Positions 13,039 through 27,810 of a stretch of 32,000 nt of DNA are shown piece after piece. Each line of letters opens with the position of its first letter. The first letter of the stretch is position 1. The notes under the pieces were generated by a model, which was given only the letters and a program-made list of their open reading frames with translations, did not search any database and had not been told where the DNA came from. Both the position numbers and the translations under genes were made by a program. Origin of the DNA: Zestosphaera tikiterensis (lineage in GTDB: Archaea; Thermoproteota; Thermoprotei_A; Sulfolobales; NBVN01); contig NBVN01000005.1 of the NCBI GenBank assembly GCA_003056265.1, positions 13,918 to 45,917 on the forward strand, read 5' to 3'.

Positions 13039-13401
13039 GTGAATAGTGTGGGCCATGTAAGGGAGCTTATAAAGCTGTATCACCGTGGTAGGTCTCTGAG
13101 CGTTGAAGCGTTGATAGATACAGGTGCTACGACTCTTGTTCTACCCAGGAGGGTGGCAGAGGAGCTCGGTGCTGAGGTGCTGGGGGAGATGGATGTGGAG
13201 CTGGCCGACGGAACGATTAGGAGGGTGCCCTACACAGTTGTAGAGGTCGAGCTAGGCGGCAGGAGGGGTCCTCTTCTCGCCGCAATAGTTGAAGGTGGAG
13301 AGGTATGCGTAGGGGTGGAAGCTTTGGAGAGGCTTGGCCTAGCCGTAGACCCAGCGACAGGGAGAATACACCCAACGAGAAGATTTGTAACAAGGCTTTG
13401 A
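13039..13401 (+). CDS. Retropepsin-like (clan AA) aspartic protease, small single-domain type, canonical D-T-G-A motif
   Basis: ALIDTGATTLVLP carries the catalytic D-T-G-A. LADGT and GVEALERLGLAVDPATG match the flap and C-terminal strands of the AF_0612-like archaeal clan AA family. The probable start is GTG 13048 (MGHV...). The gene is markedly GC-rich: 37/60 G+C in 13201-13260. Confidence 0.7.
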   Translation: MNSVGHVRELIKLYHRGRSLSVEALIDTGATTLVLPRRVAEELGAEVLGEMDVELADGTIRRVPYTVVEVELGGRRGPLLAAIVEGGEVCVGVEALERLGLAVDPATGRIHPTRRFVTRL

Positions 13402-14852: not shown

Positions 14853-15242
14853 GTGGTTAATGTGGGTTTTGTATATGTTGACGTTATTGTTCATGGGGTT
14901 GGGATGTCGAGAAGTATTAAGATGCTCGTTGATATCGGCTCTACCTACATAGTTCTTAAGCCGGATGTTATTAAGGAACTTAACCTTTACGAAACACCTT
15001 ATACGGCTGAGGTAACTTTAGCTGATGGGAGGAAGGTTAGAACTAAGCTGTATTTAGCTGAAGTTGAGGTTAAGGGTAGGAAGGGACCTGCTTTCATAGT
15101 TGAGCTAGACACACCAACACCCCTACTAGGAGTTCACGCACTTGAAACCTTAGGCTTTCGAGTCAACCCCGGAACCGGTGAAGTAGAGGAGATATCACCG
15201 GAAGGAGGATACCTACTTAACCAACAAGCCAAAGAAACATAG
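14853..15242 (+). CDS. Retropepsin-like aspartic protease paralog with variant motif D-I-G-S
   Basis: MLVDIGSTYIVL, LADGR and GVHALETLGFRVNPGTG match the same family. It has a GTG start, with an alternative GTG at 14862 giving MGFV... It is AT-rich: 22/60 G+C in 14941-15000. Confidence 0.65.
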   Translation: MVNVGFVYVDVIVHGVGMSRSIKMLVDIGSTYIVLKPDVIKELNLYETPYTAEVTLADGRKVRTKLYLAEVEVKGRKGPAFIVELDTPTPLLGVHALETLGFRVNPGTGEVEEISPEGGYLLNQQAKET

Positions 15243-16019: not shown

Positions 16020-16295
16020 GTGGTTAAGGTTAAGACTAGCATATACGTGGATAGGGAGTTGTGGGAGAGGTTTAAGAAGTATGCGTTACGGAGGGGTGTG
16101 GAGGTTAGTAAGCTTCTTGAAGATATGGTTAGAGACGAAATGATTGAAGAAATTTTGGATGAGGCGTTGTTGAGTATGGTTGGTTCGGAGGATTACGAGA
16201 TAGATTTCAAGCCTATCAAGCCTAGAGAAGGTCTTGTAAGCGAGTTGATTAGAGTTGCGAGGGAAGAAAGAGCTAGCGATATACCTAGACAGTAG
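16020..16295 (+). CDS. vapB: VapB-type antitoxin (ribbon-helix-helix-like N-terminus)
   Basis: MVKVKTSIYVDRELWERFKKYALRRGVEVSKLLEDMV is a typical beta-strand plus two-helix RHH start. The gene overlaps the downstream PIN gene. Confidence 0.7.
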   Translation: MVKVKTSIYVDRELWERFKKYALRRGVEVSKLLEDMVRDEMIEEILDEALLSMVGSEDYEIDFKPIKPREGLVSELIRVAREERASDIPRQ

Positions 16296-16725
16296 TGCTA
16301 GTGCTATAGTGAAGAGGTATATTGAAGAACCGGGAAGTAATGTTGTAAGAGAGCTCCATTTAAAAGCATACTCTAGGGAGGTCTTCCTATCATCCAGCAT
16401 ATGGAATGTTGGGGAGGTTTTAGGAGCGTTTGATAGAGCTAAAGTCATCGGTAGAATGTATGAGGAAACATACATCACAGTCAGGAGGAGATTCCTGTTA
16501 GAGACTAGAAGGATGGCGAGGCTGAGATCCCTGCGGGTAGTCCCGTTGAGGATGGGGATCCTAGTGGAGGGCTGGAAGCTCATAGAGAAGTATCACATCT
16601 ACGAAGCCGACGCTATACAACTAGCTTCAGCAAAATACGTGAACGCTTCACAGTTTCTAACAGGGGATAAGCAACTTCATGAAGTAGCCACAGAAGAGAA
16701 GCTAAATAGCATGTATTTAGGATAG
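16255..16725 (+). CDS. vapC: PIN-domain ribonuclease toxin
   Basis: The N-terminal IYLDSSASAIVKRYIEEPGS carries the first acidic PIN residue (l-D-t/s-S). Later come YEADAIQLASA (conserved D-A) and FLTGDKQL (the C-terminal acidic residue region). It uses a TTG start. Confidence 0.75.
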   Translation: MRGKKELAIYLDSSASAIVKRYIEEPGSNVVRELHLKAYSREVFLSSSIWNVGEVLGAFDRAKVIGRMYEETYITVRRRFLLETRRMARLRSLRVVPLRMGILVEGWKLIEKYHIYEADAIQLASAKYVNASQFLTGDKQLHEVATEEKLNSMYLG

Positions 16726-16764
16726 GAAATTAAATATTCAATTAAAGATTAGTAGCTAACCACA

Positions 16765-17088
16765 CATTTACTTCACGCACACAAAACCGCATATAGCGAA
16801 CGCATAGACGTTCGTAAGCATGATTTATTGGGCTGTAACCTATTTGATGTTCGGAGATATAGCTTATAAGCATTTTCACTACTAATAGTATGTTGGGAGT
16901 CCGCTTAGGCGATGGGAGCAATGCTCCAAGCCTAAGCAAAAACTTAAACATAGATGGGAGGGTCGTGCCGTTACCCTCGACAGCCGCCCATGAACCTACG
17001 GGATGAGGTAAGCAAGCCCTCTAGGTGGAGGCGGAACTCCCTAGATAAGACCACGAAAACATATGAAATGACTGAAATGAACATCTAG
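16765..17088 (+). pseudogene. tnpB: Degenerate C-terminal remnant of a TnpB (IS200/IS605 OrfB) gene
   Basis: Several frames interrupted by stops read FTSRTQNRI*, then ...LLGCNLFDVRRYSL*, then ...PMNLRDEVSKPSRWRRNSLDKTTKTYEMTEMNI* (ends 17088). These resemble the T-S-Q-x-C Zn-finger region and the Met/Asn/Glu-rich tail of the intact TnpB at 26581..27810 (...AMKNEARQSGGTKNEGMKKTIKSY). Confidence 0.4.
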
Positions 17089-17178
17089 GGAGAAACGGTA
17101 GTAACGTGTTTAACAAGGTAGTGGAGGCACTCTCTAAGAATGCTTAGATAGGTATCAACGCTATTTACCTCTAACTAA

Positions 17179-17670
17179 TTAGCTCTTCAGAGCTTTAACG
17201 AATTCGTTAAAACTTTGAGACTTTGCTATAGCATGATCTACGTCTATGACTCTAGCTATGTCCCTATAAGGCTTCTCAGCTTTGACGACGATCTTACTGA
17301 TCCTCTCGCTTAATCTCCTCTCCGGATCCACCACATCTTCAGGGTTTTCCTCGCATAAGCCAGCTAGAATCCATGACTCAATAGATTTGTTAACTCTTAA
17401 AACCCTTACTACAACACCTTTATTCTTCAAATCCATTAAGCCCCTACTCACCTCTTTATCGAACTTCTCCAGCGTGTCTTCCGCTAATCCATGCGTATCC
17501 TTTAGAAGTAATATGTAGTTATAAGTGTCTACTAAAGCCCTAGCCTTCCTAACAGCCTTCTCCACTCTGTTACCTCTTAAAACGAAGGCTTTACATTTAA
17601 CGCTAAGTCTCCTACATACCTCCTCAATAAAGCCAGCATCACTGCTACCTTCAACAAATACGGCTATCAT
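17179..17670 (-). CDS. DUF4276-like / Toprim-like small protein (third gene of the cassette)
   Basis: The 163-aa protein starts MIAVFVEGSSDAGFIEEV (a beta-strand ending in acidic V-E-G-x-x-D), then has LLLKDTHG and SIESWILAG. I recognise this pattern as the DUF4276 family. Its ATG overlaps the ATPase stop by 4 nt (ATGA). Confidence 0.65.
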   Translation of the reverse strand: MIAVFVEGSSDAGFIEEVCRRLSVKCKAFVLRGNRVEKAVRKARALVDTYNYILLLKDTHGLAEDTLEKFDKEVSRGLMDLKNKGVVVRVLRVNKSIESWILAGLCEENPEDVVDPERRLSERISKIVVKAEKPYRDIARVIDVDHAIAKSQSFNEFVKALKS

Positions 17671-18872
17671 TCCACATCACCAAAGAATCTCGAGTACCAC
17701 GCTTCACCGAGGGTACCGCCTTCCTTAAGGAACTTCCTCACAACCTCGGCTTCACTTCCCTCAATTAACTTCTTAACCTTAGTTTCCGACCCCACCTTAC
17801 CCACAATAAAAACCTCCTCAGGATTGACGTAGTCGAGTAGATGTGGTGATTGCGTAGTAAATATTACTTGGGAGGGGGCCTTCCTCGCTAAATCTACAAG
17901 AGCTTCAAGTAGGTTTGGATGCACGTGGTTTTCAGGCTCTTCAACAGCTACAACATTGAACCCTGCGTTAAGTATGAAAGCTATTGCTAAAAGCCTTATA
18001 GTCCCGTCGGATATGCCCCCAGGCCTAAGGGGTAGGGTGAGGTCTCTAGACTTAAGCCATACCTCAACAACGTTACCCTCTATATGCGGTATAACCTCCT
18101 CAACCTCAGGGACAAGACCCCTAACAACATCCTCAACCCTAGTGAAATCCCTCCTCCTCTCCAAGTAGAGATGTAGTAAATACCTAGCTAAGTTAGCTCC
18201 ACTATACTTAACTACAGGCTCAGCAGATACGTTACTACTAAGCCTTACGCTAGCAGGGTTAAAACCAAAAACACCAACCCTTCTAAGAAACTCTATAATC
18301 ACATGTATAGACTCGTCAACATCTATAGGAGGTATTGTTAAAGGCGATGCGTAAAGACTTAATAGTACTTTCTTAACTCCTCCCTCAGGGCTTCGAAGGA
18401 CTACAGTAACATCCTTAGAGATCCCTAAACCCACTTCTTTAATAACTCCATCCCTAGATCTATACCTAGCAGTACTTACCTTACCAGAGCACTCATAGAG
18501 TACTTCACCCCCCTTCTTTATAACTTCTTCATACCGATCCTTGAGTAGTCTTAATTCGTATGAAGCCTCCTCCCCTTTAAGCTCTAGAGTAGTCTTCACT
18601 TCTATAGTTTCGTATATGTTGAAACTATGTACTAGATCTCCGAACGGTATTTCGTTAGGTGAATCCTCATCAGGTGTTGGAAGACCTACTGTAACATGGT
18701 TTCTTAATAATCTTAGAGCTTTTAATACGTTGCTTTTACCGCTGGCGTTAGGCCCTATAAGCACGTTTAGCTTGCCTAACTCTATACACGCTTCTTTAAT
18801 GCTTAGGAAGTTCTTAATGCATAGCTTCTTAAGCCTTACGCTTGACTCACTAGTTGAGTAGAAGTCACGCAT
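17667..18872 (-). CDS. ABC-type / AAA_21-AAA_15-like ATPase (RecF/SMC-like head)
   Basis: It has LKKLCIKNFLSIKE at the N-terminus, Walker A GPNASGKS (aa 40-47) and Walker B / D-loop FNVVAVEEPENHVHPNLL near the C-terminus. Length is 401 aa. Confidence 0.85.
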   Translation of the reverse strand: MRDFYSTSESSVRLKKLCIKNFLSIKEACIELGKLNVLIGPNASGKSNVLKALRLLRNHVTVGLPTPDEDSPNEIPFGDLVHSFNIYETIEVKTTLELKGEEASYELRLLKDRYEEVIKKGGEVLYECSGKVSTARYRSRDGVIKEVGLGISKDVTVVLRSPEGGVKKVLLSLYASPLTIPPIDVDESIHVIIEFLRRVGVFGFNPASVRLSSNVSAEPVVKYSGANLARYLLHLYLERRRDFTRVEDVVRGLVPEVEEVIPHIEGNVVEVWLKSRDLTLPLRPGGISDGTIRLLAIAFILNAGFNVVAVEEPENHVHPNLLEALVDLARKAPSQVIFTTQSPHLLDYVNPEEVFIVGKVGSETKVKKLIEGSEAEVVRKFLKEGGTLGEAWYSRFFGDVE

Positions 18873-18875
18873 ACC

Positions 18876-19811
18876 CTACCCAGCCCTCCCTACTTTATGA
18901 CCTACGTTTATTAACTTGCTTAAATTACCAATCACTACTACGTCTCCTTCTTTCACCATGCTTGTTGGGGTATTATTTCTTAATATTAGCTTTATCTCTT
19001 CACGACCTACGTACGTTCCAATCCCTTTAAAGCCTTGTTTTTCAAGTAATTTGTGGGTGGTAATGTCTTGATTCTCTACGATGGATACTTCATACATCCC
19101 CACGCGCTCCCCGCCAAGGACATTACGCGTTCCTAAGACTCCCACATAACCGTAGTGTGGGTAACCTCCCTCAACATATACGACGCTATCCTTAATGTTA
19201 AAAGCTAATGGTGTAGGGCCTTCACCCACCGTTTTATAGCTCTTTAAGAGGATGTAGTTGTTATTTACTTCGCTGACAACCCCTTCTAAACCTCTAGCGT
19301 TTTGAGTAGGGATAAACCTATGTCTAGCGATAGCTAGTTTAACACCCCCTCTAGCTCTATACCTATCGTGGGTAAATCTAACCTCTAAATGCATGTGAGG
19401 CTCCGTCCACGGTAGGAAATAACCTGAAATGATGAGCCTCCCTAAAGGATCACCATACACTAATTTCTCACCAGGCTTAACCCCCGGCTCAACATGTAGG
19501 GTTTTAACTACATACATAGAGTTTAAGCTAAGGATCATTAGATAGTCTTGATTTAAAGCATCACGCCTACGTACAGGAGTATCAACCCTCTTAACCTCTA
19601 ACACCCTCACCTCCTCAAACGGTAGTAAAGCTTCGTTACTTAAGAAATACACATCTACCGCATGTCCCTCCCTATGTGGTGTGTAGGGACTGTTGAAAAG
19701 ACTGTAGAAAGACGCCGCATCTAAGCATAAAGGATGTTGAGGACTGTTTATAGGGTATAGCAGATCCCTACATGAAAACCTCCCGACGTAGGTCCACATC
19801 ACAGCATTCAA
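18876..19811 (-). CDS. M23/LytM-like metallopeptidase-fold protein with an uncharacterised ~160-aa C-terminal beta-rich domain (first gene of the cassette)
   Basis: REGHAVDVYF resembles H-x-x(x)-D, and VKPGEKLVYGDPLGRLIISGYFLPWTEPHMHLEVR matches the M23 G-x-x-V-x-x-G-x-x-I-G...H-x-H-x-E block. There is no signal peptide or TM segment. The stop lies 3 nt before the ATPase start. The start is TTG 19811, with an alternative ATG at 19799. Confidence 0.55.
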   Translation of the reverse strand: MNAVMWTYVGRFSCRDLLYPINSPQHPLCLDAASFYSLFNSPYTPHREGHAVDVYFLSNEALLPFEEVRVLEVKRVDTPVRRRDALNQDYLMILSLNSMYVVKTLHVEPGVKPGEKLVYGDPLGRLIISGYFLPWTEPHMHLEVRFTHDRYRARGGVKLAIARHRFIPTQNARGLEGVVSEVNNNYILLKSYKTVGEGPTPLAFNIKDSVVYVEGGYPHYGYVGVLGTRNVLGGERVGMYEVSIVENQDITTHKLLEKQGFKGIGTYVGREEIKLILRNNTPTSMVKEGDVVVIGNLSKLINVGHKVGRAG

Positions 19812-20086: not shown

Positions 20087-20455
20087 ATGTTTATTAATTG
20101 GATTTACTACCTTAGTTATGGAGTCTGCCTATATAGTGATGGGGTTGATGAGTGGTGGGGTGGTTTCCCCGGCGGGTTTCTGTGTAGGGATTTAGCTAAA
20201 GTGTCTGAAGAGGACTTTAAGAAGCTTGAAGAGCTATCTAGTAAGTACCCTGAGGTAGTGTTTCTAGCTATTACGGGATCTATAGCTCGTAAGGGCTTCA
20301 GCATACATGACGTAGATGTGGCGGTGAAGCTCAGCGCAGTTAAGGATAGATACGAAGTTTTAACATCCATTCTAACCGATATCTCCGAAATACTTAAGGT
20401 TCCGGAGGAATGCGTTGATTTAATAGACCTCGATAGAGCGGATCCAGAGGTCTGA
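20087..20455 (+). CDS. Minimal nucleotidyltransferase (MNT) domain, C-terminally truncated by an inserted element
   Basis: VVFLAITGSIARKGFSIHDVDVAV is the G-S-x-x-R-G...D-x-D NTase core. The ORF ends in a TGA supplied by the inserted sequence (20453-55). The listed N-terminus looks non-coding, and GTG 20201 (VSEEDFKKLEE...) is a more plausible start. Confidence 0.7.
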   Translation: MFINWIYYLSYGVCLYSDGVDEWWGGFPGGFLCRDLAKVSEEDFKKLEELSSKYPEVVFLAITGSIARKGFSIHDVDVAVKLSAVKDRYEVLTSILTDISEILKVPEECVDLIDLDRADPEV

Positions 20456-20759
20456 CTCTTGCGTTTGTCTTCATTCCTCATGGTTTTCCTCCACCCCCGC
20501 CTTTTGGGAGTTTAGCTTCATTGCCTTAGACTCCCGCATTGCTTCGCTAAACTCCCTGAGGCGAATGTGGAGGGGTTTAGGGGTCTTCATCCTTATCTCG
20601 CAACTGCTCATCGCTCGTCAGAGCCTCCACATCCCACATTATTACTTATAGCAACACTTATAAGTTTTCGGATAAAGAAAATCAAAGAGCAGAACCCCAC
20701 AACGACACCACCAACATAAACAACCATTCCTTAATGAACTAAGGCGACATCCAGAAGTT
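20453..20759 (-). mobile_element. 307-bp MITE-like derivative of a tnpB-type IS200/IS605 element, inserted in the MNT-HEPN gene
   Basis: It is flanked by atccagaggt (20442-51) and atccagaagt (20749-58). Its low-coordinate end (ggtctgactcttgcgtttgtcttcattcctcatggttttcctccacccccgcc) is visibly homologous to the right end of the full IS at 26548 (ggtctgaatgatactcttaat...gttttcttcatcccctcatttttcgttcccccgctc). On the minus strand it carries a decayed TnpB-tail-like reading (AMKLNSQKAGVEENHEE). The exact ends are ambiguous because of the flanking repeat. Confidence 0.5.
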
Positions 20760-20828: not shown

Positions 20829-21335
20829 GTGGAGAACTTGCTTAAGGAGTACGGCGAGCTTAGAGAGCTTTCAATTAAGGAGTGGCTGTACTCGCAGGAC
20901 CCTGCATCAGTGGATATCTCAATTATTAAACGTGGATTTGAGTTCGTAAGATCTGAGGTCGAGTTCTTAAAAGAGCAAATACTTGAAAAACCCGTTGATG
21001 AAGTAAAGAACTCACCAATTTTAAGTAGAGTTCTTGAAAGAAGCTATCAACTCATAGTGGAGGCCTTAGCAGACATCGCAAGGCATATCACATCGTCAAT
21101 GGGTTGGGGGCCTTGCTTTACGGCTTCAGAATGTTTTAAGAGAATAGCTGAGAAGAACGTAATCCCTGAACAGCTCGTTGAGGAACTCATTAAGAGGATG
21201 AAGGTCAGAAACATAATAATCCATAGATATCTAGATGTAGACTACGAAGAACTCTATAAAGACACACATAAACTCATCTCATTAACTCACGAGTTCGAAG
21301 AACATATAGTTAAATTCCTTAGGAACTTAAAATGA
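20829..21335 (+). CDS. HEPN (DUF86-type) domain protein, originally continuous with the upstream MNT domain
   Basis: KVRNIIIHRYLDVDY is the R-x4-H (R-N-x-x-x-H-x-Y) HEPN RNase motif. The frame is open upstream to 20721 and encodes PEVKAGILRNSVVIIDRGYYEELVKEV, which is the missing MNT C-terminus. Confidence 0.75.
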   Translation: MENLLKEYGELRELSIKEWLYSQDPASVDISIIKRGFEFVRSEVEFLKEQILEKPVDEVKNSPILSRVLERSYQLIVEALADIARHITSSMGWGPCFTASECFKRIAEKNVIPEQLVEELIKRMKVRNIIIHRYLDVDYEELYKDTHKLISLTHEFEEHIVKFLRNLK

Positions 21336-21632: not shown

Positions 21633-21962
21633 ATGGATTTTAGGTTCTACGGAGATATTGATGATGTAGACGATAGTAGTATAGTGTTTGATAGGGGCAG
21701 TAGGACCGTGTATTTATTTAAGCCTAGGCTTAATCCTGAGGACGAGATTACTTTAAGATTTTCACGTATTCTTGAGAAGCTTGGGATAGAGTATGTTGTT
21801 GTAGCTGGATATATAGCCATCCTCTTCGGTAGAGGTCGTAGGACTGAGGATCTAGATTTTATAGTAATGCCCCTCACCGAAGGTATGTTCGTGGATTTAT
21901 GTAGGGAAGTATCCGAAGAAGGCTTTACGTTAATGCAGGGTGATGTAAGGGTTCGGGTCTGA
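21633..21962 (+). CDS. Nucleotidyltransferase-fold protein fragment (AbiEii/DUF1814-like R-x-T/S-x-D-L-D-F motif), truncated by an inserted element
   Basis: YVVVAGYIAILFGRGRRTEDLDFIV resembles the G-G-x-A...R-x-S/T-x-D-x-D-F NTase core. The last residues and the TGA (21960-62) come from the inserted element's end (gggttcgggtctga). Confidence 0.45.
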   Translation: MDFRFYGDIDDVDDSSIVFDRGSRTVYLFKPRLNPEDEITLRFSRILEKLGIEYVVVAGYIAILFGRGRRTEDLDFIVMPLTEGMFVDLCREVSEEGFTLMQGDVRVRV

Positions 21963-22275
21963 ACGATACTCCTAATCCTTCTCAAATATTTTTAATTGTT
22001 TTCTTCATCCCTTCATTTTTTGTTCCTCCGCTCTGTCGGGTTTCATCCTTCACAGCAGAGGCTCTTAGGGGCGACCCAAACACCCCCACACACGCTTACC
22101 CACTCTCTCCCCTAATCTCTACGATACTACCTTAGGGATCCACCTACCCTACGGGTGGATAAACCCCTCATCAACTCAAACAAAACTACCCAACCAACAT
22201 ATATAAACCTTTAAAATAGAAAGAAATTAAAAACATTTAAGAATATCGAGGAATTACATAGAGGGCAATACGGCT
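21949..22275 (-). mobile_element. ~327-bp MITE-like deletion derivative of the tnpB IS family (right end / omega-RNA region plus left end, no tnpB)
   Basis: 21949-22100 aligns by eye at about 80-85% identity with 26548-26700, the 3' end of tnpB plus the right end of the full IS. 22237-22275 (ttaagaatatcgag...catagag...tacggct) matches the other IS end at 28029-28077 (ttaagaatatttgag...tatagaa...tacggct). The minus strand encodes a TnpB tail remnant, GVFGSPLRASAVKDETRQSGGTKNEGMKKTIKNI*. Confidence 0.6.
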
Positions 22276-26374: not shown

Positions 26375-26587
26375 ATGCAGGTTAGGGGGGTAACTATGCC
26401 GTACTTCGATCCGGAGCCGAAGAAGTGTAGGGAGGATTTCTTCAACGCTGAGAAGGAGGTTGAGGAGTTTAAAAGAGGTCTTAACGTTTCTAAGCTTGTA
26501 GTGGTTTCCGGGTTGAGAAGATATGGTAAGACATCCCTTATCTTAACGGGTTCGGGTCTGAATGATACTCTTAATCACTCTCAATAG
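26375..26587 (+). pseudogene. N-terminal fragment of an Arch_ATPase-type AAA+ ATPase gene, interrupted by the IS
   Basis: REDFFNAEKEVEEFKRGL...LVVVSGLRRYGKTSLIL is the canonical F-x-N-R-E-x-E-L...G-x-R-R-x-G-K-T-S-L start (Walker A). The last 12 codons and the stop derive from the IS end. The probable start is ATG 26396. Confidence 0.7.
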
Positions 26588-26720
26588 CTCTTAATTGTTT
26601 TCTTCATCCCCTCATTTTTCGTTCCCCCGCTCTGTCGGGCTTCATTCTTCATTGCGGAGGCTCTTTGGGGTGACCCGGGCACCCCCGCATACGCTTTTAA
26701 AACCTTCAGCCAAATGTTTA
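26548..26720 (-). ncRNA. Putative omega-RNA (reRNA) scaffold of the tnpB element
   Basis: Called by position only. In characterised TnpB systems the guide RNA scaffold is encoded by the 3' end of tnpB plus the right end, and this is exactly the segment conserved in the tnpB-less copy at 21949-22100. I could not compute a secondary structure. Confidence 0.3.
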
Positions 26721-27810
26721 TAGCTCCTATTACATCTCTATCGGCTCTGAACCCGCATTTACGGCATATCCCGAATCTTCCAATATATCTAATTTTTGAT
26801 TTACATCTTGGGCATGTTGAAGATGTTTTCTTAGGATTTACAAACACTACTGGAACGTTATACTCAATAGCTTTACTTAATATTGATTCTTGAAGCTTTC
26901 TATAAGCAAACATTGTAAGCTTCCAAACAACTCTATCATTTTTGTTATTGTATGATTTTCTAAGCTTTTTTAAATCTTCTAAAGCTATTGTGTAGCCATG
27001 TCTCTTAGCTTTCAACGTAATTTCTTTCGCGAACTTCCTACACCAATTAATAACGATATTTCTAGACCTTCTATGGAGGTTTTTAACTCTCTTCAAAATC
27101 TTCTTATTGTATCTCCACCTCTTAGGATATTTCTTCTGAATTTCTTCAGCTCTAGCTTTCTTACTTAAAGCATCTATAAACCTAGTCTTATATCTTCTAA
27201 TGTCAGGGCAGTCATATGATACGACATGCCTTAAATTCAGGTCTAGAGCTACAACACCTTTAGGGATGTATGGTGTGTATCTCACCTTAAACACTATACT
27301 CACGTAGAGCTTGCCATTACGGTATTTAATGTGTACTTCCTTCCACTTCAAACTTTTAAATCTTTCGATATATCCATCCCTATGTTTGATTCTAAGGGTG
27401 TATTGCTTATCTCTTAGAATAATTTTAATAGTTTTGTTGCTTAAATTTACTTCAGCATCTTGATGGTCTAGTCTAGTAAAGAGCTTTTTAACGGTAGGTT
27501 TTGAGCCTTCGTTACTCTTAGCGGATTTAACTAATGCTATTGCTGTGTTGTATATGTTTCTCACTACATGTGCTCTAAAACCATATACTCTAAGCATCCC
27601 GTAGAACATTTGATGTGCTTGATCTTTCTTAGGTATTTCTTCAAGCTCCCATAACGCATCTATAACTTTCTGAAGAACGCACCTATATATCACCAAATCC
27701 CAGAACAAATCCTTGATATCTCCCTCTACAACCTCAGCTACAGCTTTTAAAGTCCTATGGTATACTCCCTCAGGCATCCGCCCAACTCTAGAGCGGATAA
27801 ACGCCTTCAT
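26581..27810 (-). CDS. tnpB: TnpB (OrfB) RNA-guided nuclease of an IS200/IS605-family element
   Basis: RuvC-I is VVALDLNLRHV, RuvC-II is YTIALEDLKKL, the Zn finger is CPRCKSK...CRKCGF and RuvC-III is RADRDVIGAINIW. Length is 409 aa. A TATA-like tttataaattt (27846-56) lies upstream. Confidence 0.9.
   Translation of the reverse strand: MKAFIRSRVGRMPEGVYHRTLKAVAEVVEGDIKDLFWDLVIYRCVLQKVIDALWELEEIPKKDQAHQMFYGMLRVYGFRAHVVRNIYNTAIALVKSAKSNEGSKPTVKKLFTRLDHQDAEVNLSNKTIKIILRDKQYTLRIKHRDGYIERFKSLKWKEVHIKYRNGKLYVSIVFKVRYTPYIPKGVVALDLNLRHVVSYDCPDIRRYKTRFIDALSKKARAEEIQKKYPKRWRYNKKILKRVKNLHRRSRNIVINWCRKFAKEITLKAKRHGYTIALEDLKKLRKSYNNKNDRVVWKLTMFAYRKLQESILSKAIEYNVPVVFVNPKKTSSTCPRCKSKIRYIGRFGICRKCGFRADRDVIGAINIWLKVLKAYAGVPGSPQRASAMKNEARQSGGTKNEGMKKTIKSY

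Follow-up and report, generated by a model that had tools for sequence, protein, structure and literature searches.

A probable HEC-01-type ATPase/Toprim-like gene pair beside a DUF8155 gene in Zestosphaera tikiterensis

Three minus-strand genes are tightly packed in a 32,000-nucleotide (nt) stretch of DNA from the archaeon Zestosphaera tikiterensis, the whole of which is called the window here. According to the listing of open reading frames (ORFs) and the sequence, they encode a 311-amino acid (aa) M23-like protein (DUF8155 gene, 18876-19811, TTG start), a 401-aa ABC-type ATPase (17667-18872) and a small 163-aa DUF4276/Toprim-like protein (17179-17670). We report that the ATPase gene and the small gene most likely constitute a two-gene module of the HEC-01 type which lies beside an unrelated DUF8155 gene, and we give this reading a probability of about 0.8. 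A preliminary description of the same DNA had proposed an undescribed defence system made of all three genes. Its observation of the locus, its domain calls and its comparison of the pair with PARIS stood up to analysis, but the three-gene system did not, because the trio is not conserved, homologs of the DUF8155 gene occur in housekeeping contexts, and the pair matches HEC-01, which is already catalogued.

Results

Conservation of the ATPase/small-gene pair

Altogether, 120 loci were gathered. Of these, 56 carry DUF8155 homologs and were obtained by closest-relative look-ups and a one-genome-per-species scan (47 loci, all archaeal records), and 64 carry relatives of the ATPase; iterated hidden Markov model searches were run over six-frame ORFs. 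Neither the ATPase nor the small partner was found in any of the 56 DUF8155 loci, and in 38 of these the sequence extends 1.7 kb or more downstream. There are 28 ATPase loci in which 1 kb or more of sequence is available upstream, and DUF8155 was found in none of them. Among the 55 ATPase loci whose sequence continues for 450 bp or more downstream, 50 have the small partner directly after the ATPase gene, on the same strand. When the neighbours were clustered, this partner was the sole recurrent neighbour of the ATPase (42/59 loci in one BLAST cluster), and no conserved third gene was detected in the ATPase loci. Because the great majority of ATPase loci carry the partner and the trio is absent elsewhere, we regard the ATPase/small-protein pair as the unit. 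The proposed three-gene system was rejected on the basis of these co-occurrence counts, and the synteny of the trio, which the preliminary description had suggested checking, is not kept across lineages.

The nearest relatives show the same separation. ATPase relatives at 66% and 55% identity (L010/L011 and L012, respectively) are accompanied by a partner of 163-164 aa, and the region upstream of these ATPase genes consists of 230-270 nt of intergenic sequence followed by a divergent gene, with no DUF8155. The 60%-identical DUF8155 relatives in L007 and L008 are found without an adjoining ATPase/partner pair. In L007, a divergent 661-aa ABC_tran gene beside DUF8155 was considered as an ATPase partner and discarded, as it encodes a GNAT-ABC_tran fusion which is unrelated to HEC-01A (BLASTP E 0.25).

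The three-gene junction is shared only by conspecific metagenome contigs, namely L006 (96% identity) and L121 (98%). The L006 contig extends 9 nt into the ATPase gene, and the near-copies from the two metagenomes (96-98%) cover the first 9 nt of the ATPase gene, its 3' end and the entire small gene. These junctions belong to one lineage and are not independent conservation. In compact archaeal genomes a spacing of 3 nt is no evidence of a functional unit, and we read the tight spacing as juxtaposition, possibly with read-through transcription, and not as a sign of a three-component system.

Fused forms were also considered. Using a DUF8155 profile, 249 clusters were found among 1.84 billion representatives at E<=1e-3, and this low number suggests that the family is compact and separate from canonical M23. 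The 150 best matches listed have lengths of 105-387 aa. Since an additional ATPase of about 400 aa would not fit into such lengths, none of these 150 is a fusion with the ATPase.

Match of the pair to HEC-01

HEC-01 (Hma-embedded candidate 01) pairs an ABC ATPase with a TOPRIM partner and was found embedded in Hma defence systems (Payne et al., bioRxiv 10.1101/2024.01.29.577857). When the proteins were searched against the PADLOC models, the ATPase matched HEC-01A over nearly its whole length (PDLC04178, 4.4e-44, residues 9-380 against model positions 4-367 of 399), and six further HEC-01A models matched at 1e-29 or better. The small protein matched HEC-01B weakly, through its C-terminal part only in the case of PDLC04198 (3.6e-5) and over residues 24-161 in the case of PDLC04196 (1.2e-4). 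Among 16 partners of its archaeal clade, 11 matched HEC-01B (best E 5e-8) and nine matched mad4, and HEC-01B was matched by all ten of the bona fide DUF4276 partners. The DUF8155 protein matched none of the PADLOC models. An ATPase/DUF4276 pair of this kind is thus already catalogued in PADLOC as the candidate HEC-01.

Gene layout and junction

The DUF8155 gene and the ATPase gene are separated by 3 nt (18873-18875), and the ATPase gene and the small gene overlap by 4 nt, ATGA (17667-17670). The three ORFs, the gap and the overlap are all present as they had been described, and the quoted motifs GPNASGKS, VVAVEEPENHVHP, MIAVFVEGSSD, LLLKDTHG, IESWIL and PHMHLEV were all found. The ATGA overlap implies translational coupling of the small gene to the ATPase gene. 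In the alignment, the N-terminal extension of the ATPase, MRDFYSTSESSVR, is common to its closest relatives, and the ATG start of this gene and the 3-nt gap are therefore regarded as genuine. The true start of the DUF8155 gene, judged from the 96%-identical homolog P0001, is probably the ATG at 19799, which gives a protein of 307 aa.

The junction (18873-18920, minus strand) consists of the 3-nt gap and the final ~45 nt of the DUF8155 ORF. Two TATA-like A/T-rich boxes, TTAATAAA and CATAAAG, were read by eye some 20-45 nt upstream of the ATG of the ATPase gene, and the pair may accordingly have its own internal promoter within the 3' end of the DUF8155 gene. The C-terminal tail of the DUF8155 protein encoded here (residues ~300-311) is unconserved among homologs and is modelled with a predicted local distance difference test score (pLDDT) below 50. 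A scan for sigma-70 promoters and intrinsic terminators gave counts at or below the shuffle expectation, though the sigma-70 model is inapplicable to archaea. The GC content is about 0.42 over all three genes and gives no compositional sign that the pair is a recent insertion.

In an exact-sequence look-up, the ATPase was identical to PUA31941.1 of Zestosphaera tikiterensis. The host had been taken for an archaeon from the DNA, and the window indeed comes from a metagenome-assembled genome of this species. Zestosphaera is a crenarchaeon of the Desulfurococcaceae which has been grown in co-culture with a nanoarchaeote, and to our knowledge crenarchaea have no murein.

The ABC-type ATPase

The ATPase matched the Pfam families AAA_21 (1.4e-29) and AAA_15 (1.8e-17), which bears out the original call of an ABC ATPase. 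Across an alignment of 13 sequences including the relatives, the Walker A lysine (K46), the signature S288-D-G-T291 and the Walker B EEPEN are invariant. By sequence, the closest solved structure to its N-terminus is the OLD-family nuclease 6p74 (2.8e-9). A homolog search gave 159 clusters at E<=1e-30, and all clusters carrying an organism name are archaeal. The predicted role of the protein, by analogy with related systems, is that of the sensor/scaffold subunit of the two-gene module.

One position of the window copy deviates. Codon 341 (17850-17852, minus strand) encodes Gln (CAA, TTQSP), whereas all 12 aligned relatives have the H-loop His (TTHSP). This His341->Gln replacement is a one-base change which, among the aligned sequences, is private to the window copy, and it could impair ATP hydrolysis. 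The C-terminus of the family ends in a strictly conserved motif, EGGTLGEAWYS (17670-17720), in which G385-W392 are invariant in the 13 sequences. From this conservation, the motif is a candidate for the site where the small partner docks.

The small DUF4276/Toprim-like protein

The small protein scored 28.7 bits with Pfam DUF4276 (PF14103), which is below the gathering cutoff of 30.2, and only residues 108-161 were aligned. A much clearer result was obtained when the profile of its clade was compared, using hhalign, with that of bona fide DUF4276 partners, a reference set in which 10/10 members match Pfam DUF4276. The two profiles aligned over the full length (166 columns) with a probability of 97.5% and an E value of 5.7e-12, and this comparison upholds the DUF4276/Toprim-like call that had been made for the 163-aa protein. 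Within the archaeal clade, DUF4276 itself is matched by 12/16 members, OLD-like_TOPRIM by three of the 16, and RloB (PF13707) weakly by one (2.3e-4); matches to Toprim also occur in the clade. For the small protein itself, the Pfam search gave no RloB match and no DUF4435 match at E<=1, and no AriB match was found among the PADLOC models.

In the literature, DUF4276 and RloB are placed in the Toprim superfamily, with Mad4 as a DUF4276 homolog (PMC12065111), and the HEC-01B partner is described as a TOPRIM protein (10.1101/2024.01.29.577857). Judged by its profile matches, the small protein can be assigned to DUF4276 as a divergent member, and its predicted role, by analogy, is that of a nuclease effector.

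The AlphaFold2 (AF2) model of the small protein (pLDDT 93.9) has a beta-alpha x4 core. In the model and the alignment, an invariant glutamate (E7) follows beta1, and D58-x-H60 is located at the end of beta3. Codons 58-60 lie at 17491-17499 (minus strand), where the archaeal clade reads K-D-x-H, with D-x-K in two members. Bacterial DUF4276 partners have D-x-D at this Toprim position, as against D-x-H in most of the archaeal clade, and by this alignment the replacement appears to be a clade-wide change at the predicted metal site and not a private lesion of the window copy. When the model was searched against PDB folds, the best matches were generic flavodoxin-like three-layer alpha/beta folds (e.g. 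lumazine synthase) with a TM score of about 0.4. In the viral-library fold search, the top match was an RloB-like protein (TMq 0.56), and DnaG-like TOPRIM models appeared at ranks 12, 17 and 28.

The M23-like DUF8155 protein

The DUF8155 protein was only weakly matched by sequence to Peptidase_M23 (PF01551, 13.8 bits, E 0.069, below the gathering cutoff of 28.7), and a profile search against PDB sequences reached the M23 domain of 6yj1 at no better than E 0.47. At the level of the fold, the original M23-like call was confirmed. Using the AF2 model (pLDDT 85.3, predicted TM score 0.87), nearly all of the top 30 Foldseek matches in PDB were M23/LytM proteins, many chains with a probability of 1.0, and they included 2gu1 (4e-4), ShyA, lysostaphin, LytU, DipM, Csd1/2 and EnvC, with target-normalised TM scores up to 0.58. 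The Pfam labels PF26482 and PF26483 (DUF8155 and DUF8155_C) are precomputed on P0001 (96% identical), and PF26482 on all 17 homolog clusters. The assignment of the window protein rests on these homolog labels, as the local Pfam copy did not report the two models.

The residues H46, D53, H106, H139, H141 and E143 are invariant in an alignment of 55 sequences (H139 and H141 in 55/55, H106 in 53/53), and the C-terminal half of M23 can be aligned with the conserved LHV...GDxxG...S...HxHxE block. The histidine of the GHAVD block that the preliminary description had quoted (H50) is kept in only 5/52 family members, and the invariant pair is H46/D53 instead. Compared with M23/LytM proteins, the DUF8155 protein thus has a first metal motif of H-x6-D (H46-x6-D53) in place of the canonical H-x3-D, an extra beta-rich C-terminal domain and a sub-threshold sequence score. 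No N-terminal hydrophobic stretch was seen by eye. Taken together, we describe the protein as probably cytoplasmic, with an M23/LytM-like zinc-hydrolase fold whose metal site seems intact but is non-canonical (H-x6-D...H...H-x-H), and its probable function is that of an amidase or peptidase whose substrate lies inside the cell. In the one-genome-per-species scan, the family was found only in archaeal records (all 47 loci), and to the best of our knowledge the archaeal lineages that carry it lack murein.

The beta-rich DUF8155_C domain (residues ~160-311; 18876-19340) is confidently modelled and gave low-probability PDB fold matches only. It has an invariant motif of its own, GG-x-P-x-Y, at residues 215-220.

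The neighbours of DUF8155 in other genomes point in a different direction from defence. A gene for lipoate-protein ligase, LplA (LplA-B_cat, 6.7e-53), lies within about 4 kb of DUF8155 in 12 of the 56 loci, spread over Desulfurococcales, Thermococci and Bathyarchaeia. Two radical-SAM genes accompany it in five of these, and an operon-like order of DUF8155, radical-SAM, LplA, radical-SAM is found on one strand in L056 and L059. The loci with LplA include L056:6001-9710, L059:4131-7862, L054:3683-7718 and L004:6001-10693, and others are in L021, L024, L029, L032, L038, L044 and L047. The radical-SAM genes may resemble LipS1/LipS2. No LplA or radical-SAM genes were found in the ATPase loci. These housekeeping contexts speak against the peptidase as a component of the system first proposed, and we consider DUF8155 an unrelated, vertically conserved archaeal gene outside the module. 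The recurrence of LplA and radical-SAM genes nearby suggests, speculatively, a tie to lipoyl-protein metabolism. In our literature search on DUF8155, no report was found.

Genomic surroundings

In the window, a glycan-biosynthesis cluster is followed by a variable region with VapBC, MNT/HepT, retropepsin-like ORFs, TnpB and FeoAB. Two toxin-antitoxin (TA) pairs on the plus strand flank the three genes without being part of the module. On one side are a VapB-like ribbon-helix-helix antitoxin (16020-16295, Pfam RHH_3/RHH_1) and a VapC PIN toxin (16255-16725, Pfam PIN), and on the other side are an MNT of the Polbeta nucleotidyltransferase family (20087-20455, Pfam Polbeta 2.5e-7) and HepT (20829-21335, Pfam HepT-like 1.2e-18). 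In the 96%-identical contig L006, DUF8155 likewise has MNT/HepT genes at its side. About 298 bp between MNT and HepT (20451-20749) in the window are absent from L006, the MNT ORF measures 122 aa in the window and 171 aa in L006, and for HepT the lengths are 168 aa and 78 aa, respectively. These size differences and the indel indicate that this TA pair is being remodelled within the population.

The locus had been described as an island of TA modules and insertion sequence (IS) debris with a tnpB remnant directly downstream of the three genes. The TA modules are present, and so is a full TnpB gene (26581-27810), but the remnant is not in the place indicated: in a tblastn search with the TnpB of the window, nothing was found in 16726-17178, and the sole fragment was at 21949-22097, beyond MNT/HepT. 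This IS remnant is a 149-bp fragment of the 3' end of tnpB (aa 373-408 plus flank) and is 84% identical to 26548-26696, the matching end of the full TnpB gene.

Downstream of the small gene is an ORF-free region of 450 bp with a GC-rich patch (16900-17050, 0.54-0.58 against about 0.40 for the window), which is 98% identical in L121. A structured RNA or the end of a mobile element was considered for these 450 bp and rejected, with no Rfam match at E<=1, folding z values of -0.7 and 0.07, and no match to phage records. Retropepsin-like ORFs (Asp_protease_2 / gag-asp_proteas) occur in the variable region at 13039-13401 and 14853-15242, and a similar one is found at L012:367-732, about 1.8 kb from the HEC-01-like pair of that locus.

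Discussion

Proposed mechanism

If the pair is the unit, a mechanism of the PARIS/OLD/Gabija type can be drawn by analogy, and we consider the chances of it being correct to be about even. An oligomer of the ATPase would keep the small Toprim nuclease inactive and would sense a cue from a virus or another foreign element. When ATP is then bound or hydrolysed, the nuclease would be released or activated and would cut nucleic acid (tRNA or DNA), leading to growth arrest of the infected cell. As for its position, the mobile ATPase/Toprim pair would have settled 3 nt behind the DUF8155 gene in the Zestosphaera lineage.

Several points weigh against a HEC-01-type module with an unrelated neighbour. 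Given the 3-nt spacing and the common strand, the three genes may plausibly be transcribed together, and because the same junction is found in the conspecific L006, a lineage-specific functional link is conceivable from sequence. The lipoate link of DUF8155 is seen in about a fifth of its loci and is absent from the window. For the pair itself, the canonical Toprim D-x-D appears as D-x-H in the archaeal clade alignment, the Toprim assignment of the modelled small protein is unconfirmed by the PDB fold search, and a PDB sequence search with the profile of its clade gave chance-level matches only. The catalytic competence of the window ATPase is uncertain, since among the aligned sequences it is the only one to carry Gln at the position of the H-loop His. 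Finally, the defence function of HEC-01 is unproven, as the homolog tested gave no protection in E. coli.

Alternative explanations

The idea of a single undescribed defence system composed of the three genes, with the M23-like peptidase as a second effector or an activator of a PARIS-like pair, draws on the common strand and the 3-nt gap, on the recurrence of the junction in the 96%-identical conspecific contig, on the apparently intact M23-like site and on the location among TA modules. We nevertheless hold it to be very improbable, because the parts do not co-occur outside the species in the 56 DUF8155 loci and 28 ATPase loci compared, the nearest relatives of each are found without the other, the pair is complete alone in nearly all of its loci, and DUF8155 has housekeeping neighbours and no PADLOC match. 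The narrower version, in which DUF8155 was captured in the Zestosphaera lineage into one transcription unit with the HEC-01-type pair and became its third component, seems to us just as unlikely. If it were true, the captured protein, e.g. a protease which activates the ATPase/Toprim complex or is activated by it, would be the first cytoplasmic M23-fold enzyme in archaeal immunity. An even slimmer chance is given to the view that the window copy of the pair is compromised or decaying and that the three-gene packing has no functional meaning. The H-loop replacement seen in this copy only (His in 12/12 relatives) and the IS/TA debris with truncated genes around it (TnpB fragment, MNT/HepT indel relative to L006) would fit such decay, but both ORFs are full length, the other motifs are intact, D-x-H is conserved throughout the clade, and near-identical partial copies (96-98%) are found in two metagenomes.

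A more serious question is whether the ATPase/DUF4276 pair is antiviral at all. It may instead be a selfish addiction or TA-like module, or a nucleic-acid housekeeping factor travelling with mobile DNA, and we regard this as unlikely, yet as the strongest of the competing explanations. In its favour, E. coli was not protected by a HEC-01 homolog against any of the phages used in the test (10.1101/2024.01.29.577857), VapBC and MNT/HepT lie on either side of the pair, the unrelated genomic contexts of close relatives suggest mobility, and Pfam describes AAA_21 as 'putative AbiEii toxin, Type IV TA system'. However, HEC-01 was discovered inside Hma defence systems, the nearest architectural relatives of the pair (OLD, PARIS, AbiL, Gabija and MADS3-4) are defence systems, and abortive infection and TA behaviour are not mutually exclusive. 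We favour a HEC-01-type pair beside an unrelated DUF8155 gene.

Significance

By this analysis, the supposed three-gene system resolves into a catalogued two-gene candidate of the HEC-01 type and an unrelated gene. The coherent archaeal clade with D-x-H Toprim partners could guide the biochemistry of a system type for which no phenotype has yet been seen in E. coli. In addition, the neighbourhood of DUF8155 offers a testable lead for an uncharacterised family with an M23-like fold and an invariant metal site.

Comparison with known systems

Systems which combine an ABC ATPase with a TOPRIM protein have been grouped in the literature, and AbiL and MADS3-4 are placed among them, with DUF4276 among the domain annotations of the corresponding tree (PMC11464382). 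The pair shares features with several of these systems. It resembles Mad3/Mad4 of MADS, the methylation-associated defence system, in having an AAA_21-type ATPase and a DUF4276 protein, and the ATPase matched the PADLOC model mad3 at 1.9e-21. With the NCBIfam model MAD3, however, the 85.7 bits of the ATPase fall short of the cutoff of 420, and the window ORFs that were searched include neither a methyltransferase nor other MADS genes; on these grounds, the pair is not MADS. For the fused ABC ATPase-Toprim nucleases OLD and GajA of Gabija, the ATPase matched the PADLOC models at 1e-18 to 1e-20, but ATPase and Toprim are separate polypeptides in the window, and there is no GajB-like helicase. 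In the case of AbiL (AbiLi with AbiLii/RloB), the ATPase matched AbiLi at 9e-30 and the top match of the small protein among viral folds was RloB-like, whereas no Pfam RloB match supports this likeness, which is at the level of the fold only.

PARIS follows the same logic, with an ABC ATPase (AriA) and a separate small Toprim effector (AriB), and the ATPase gave partial matches to AriA models (9.4e-30). The analogy of a PARIS-like ATPase with a Toprim effector, already drawn in the preliminary description, fits the published classification for the pair (PMC11464382; Payne et al. preprint). Strictly speaking, the pair is not a PARIS system, as its partner belongs with DUF4276 and not with DUF4435; the 163 aa of this partner are about half of AriB (roughly 35 kDa), and HEC-01A outscores AriA by far. 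As a mechanistic template, PARIS nevertheless seems the best available, with an ATPase scaffold that would release a nuclease upon sensing a trigger.

The closest counterpart is HEC-01, in which, as in the window, an ABC ATPase gene (HEC-01A) and a TOPRIM-like gene (HEC-01B) are adjacent on the same strand. The window pair differs from it in that the match of the partner to HEC-01B is weak, D-x-H stands in place of D-x-D in the archaeal clade, and the pair lies outside any Hma system. On the strength of the profile matches, we class the pair as HEC-01-type, a kind known as a catalogued candidate, of which the window copy would be a new archaeal member.

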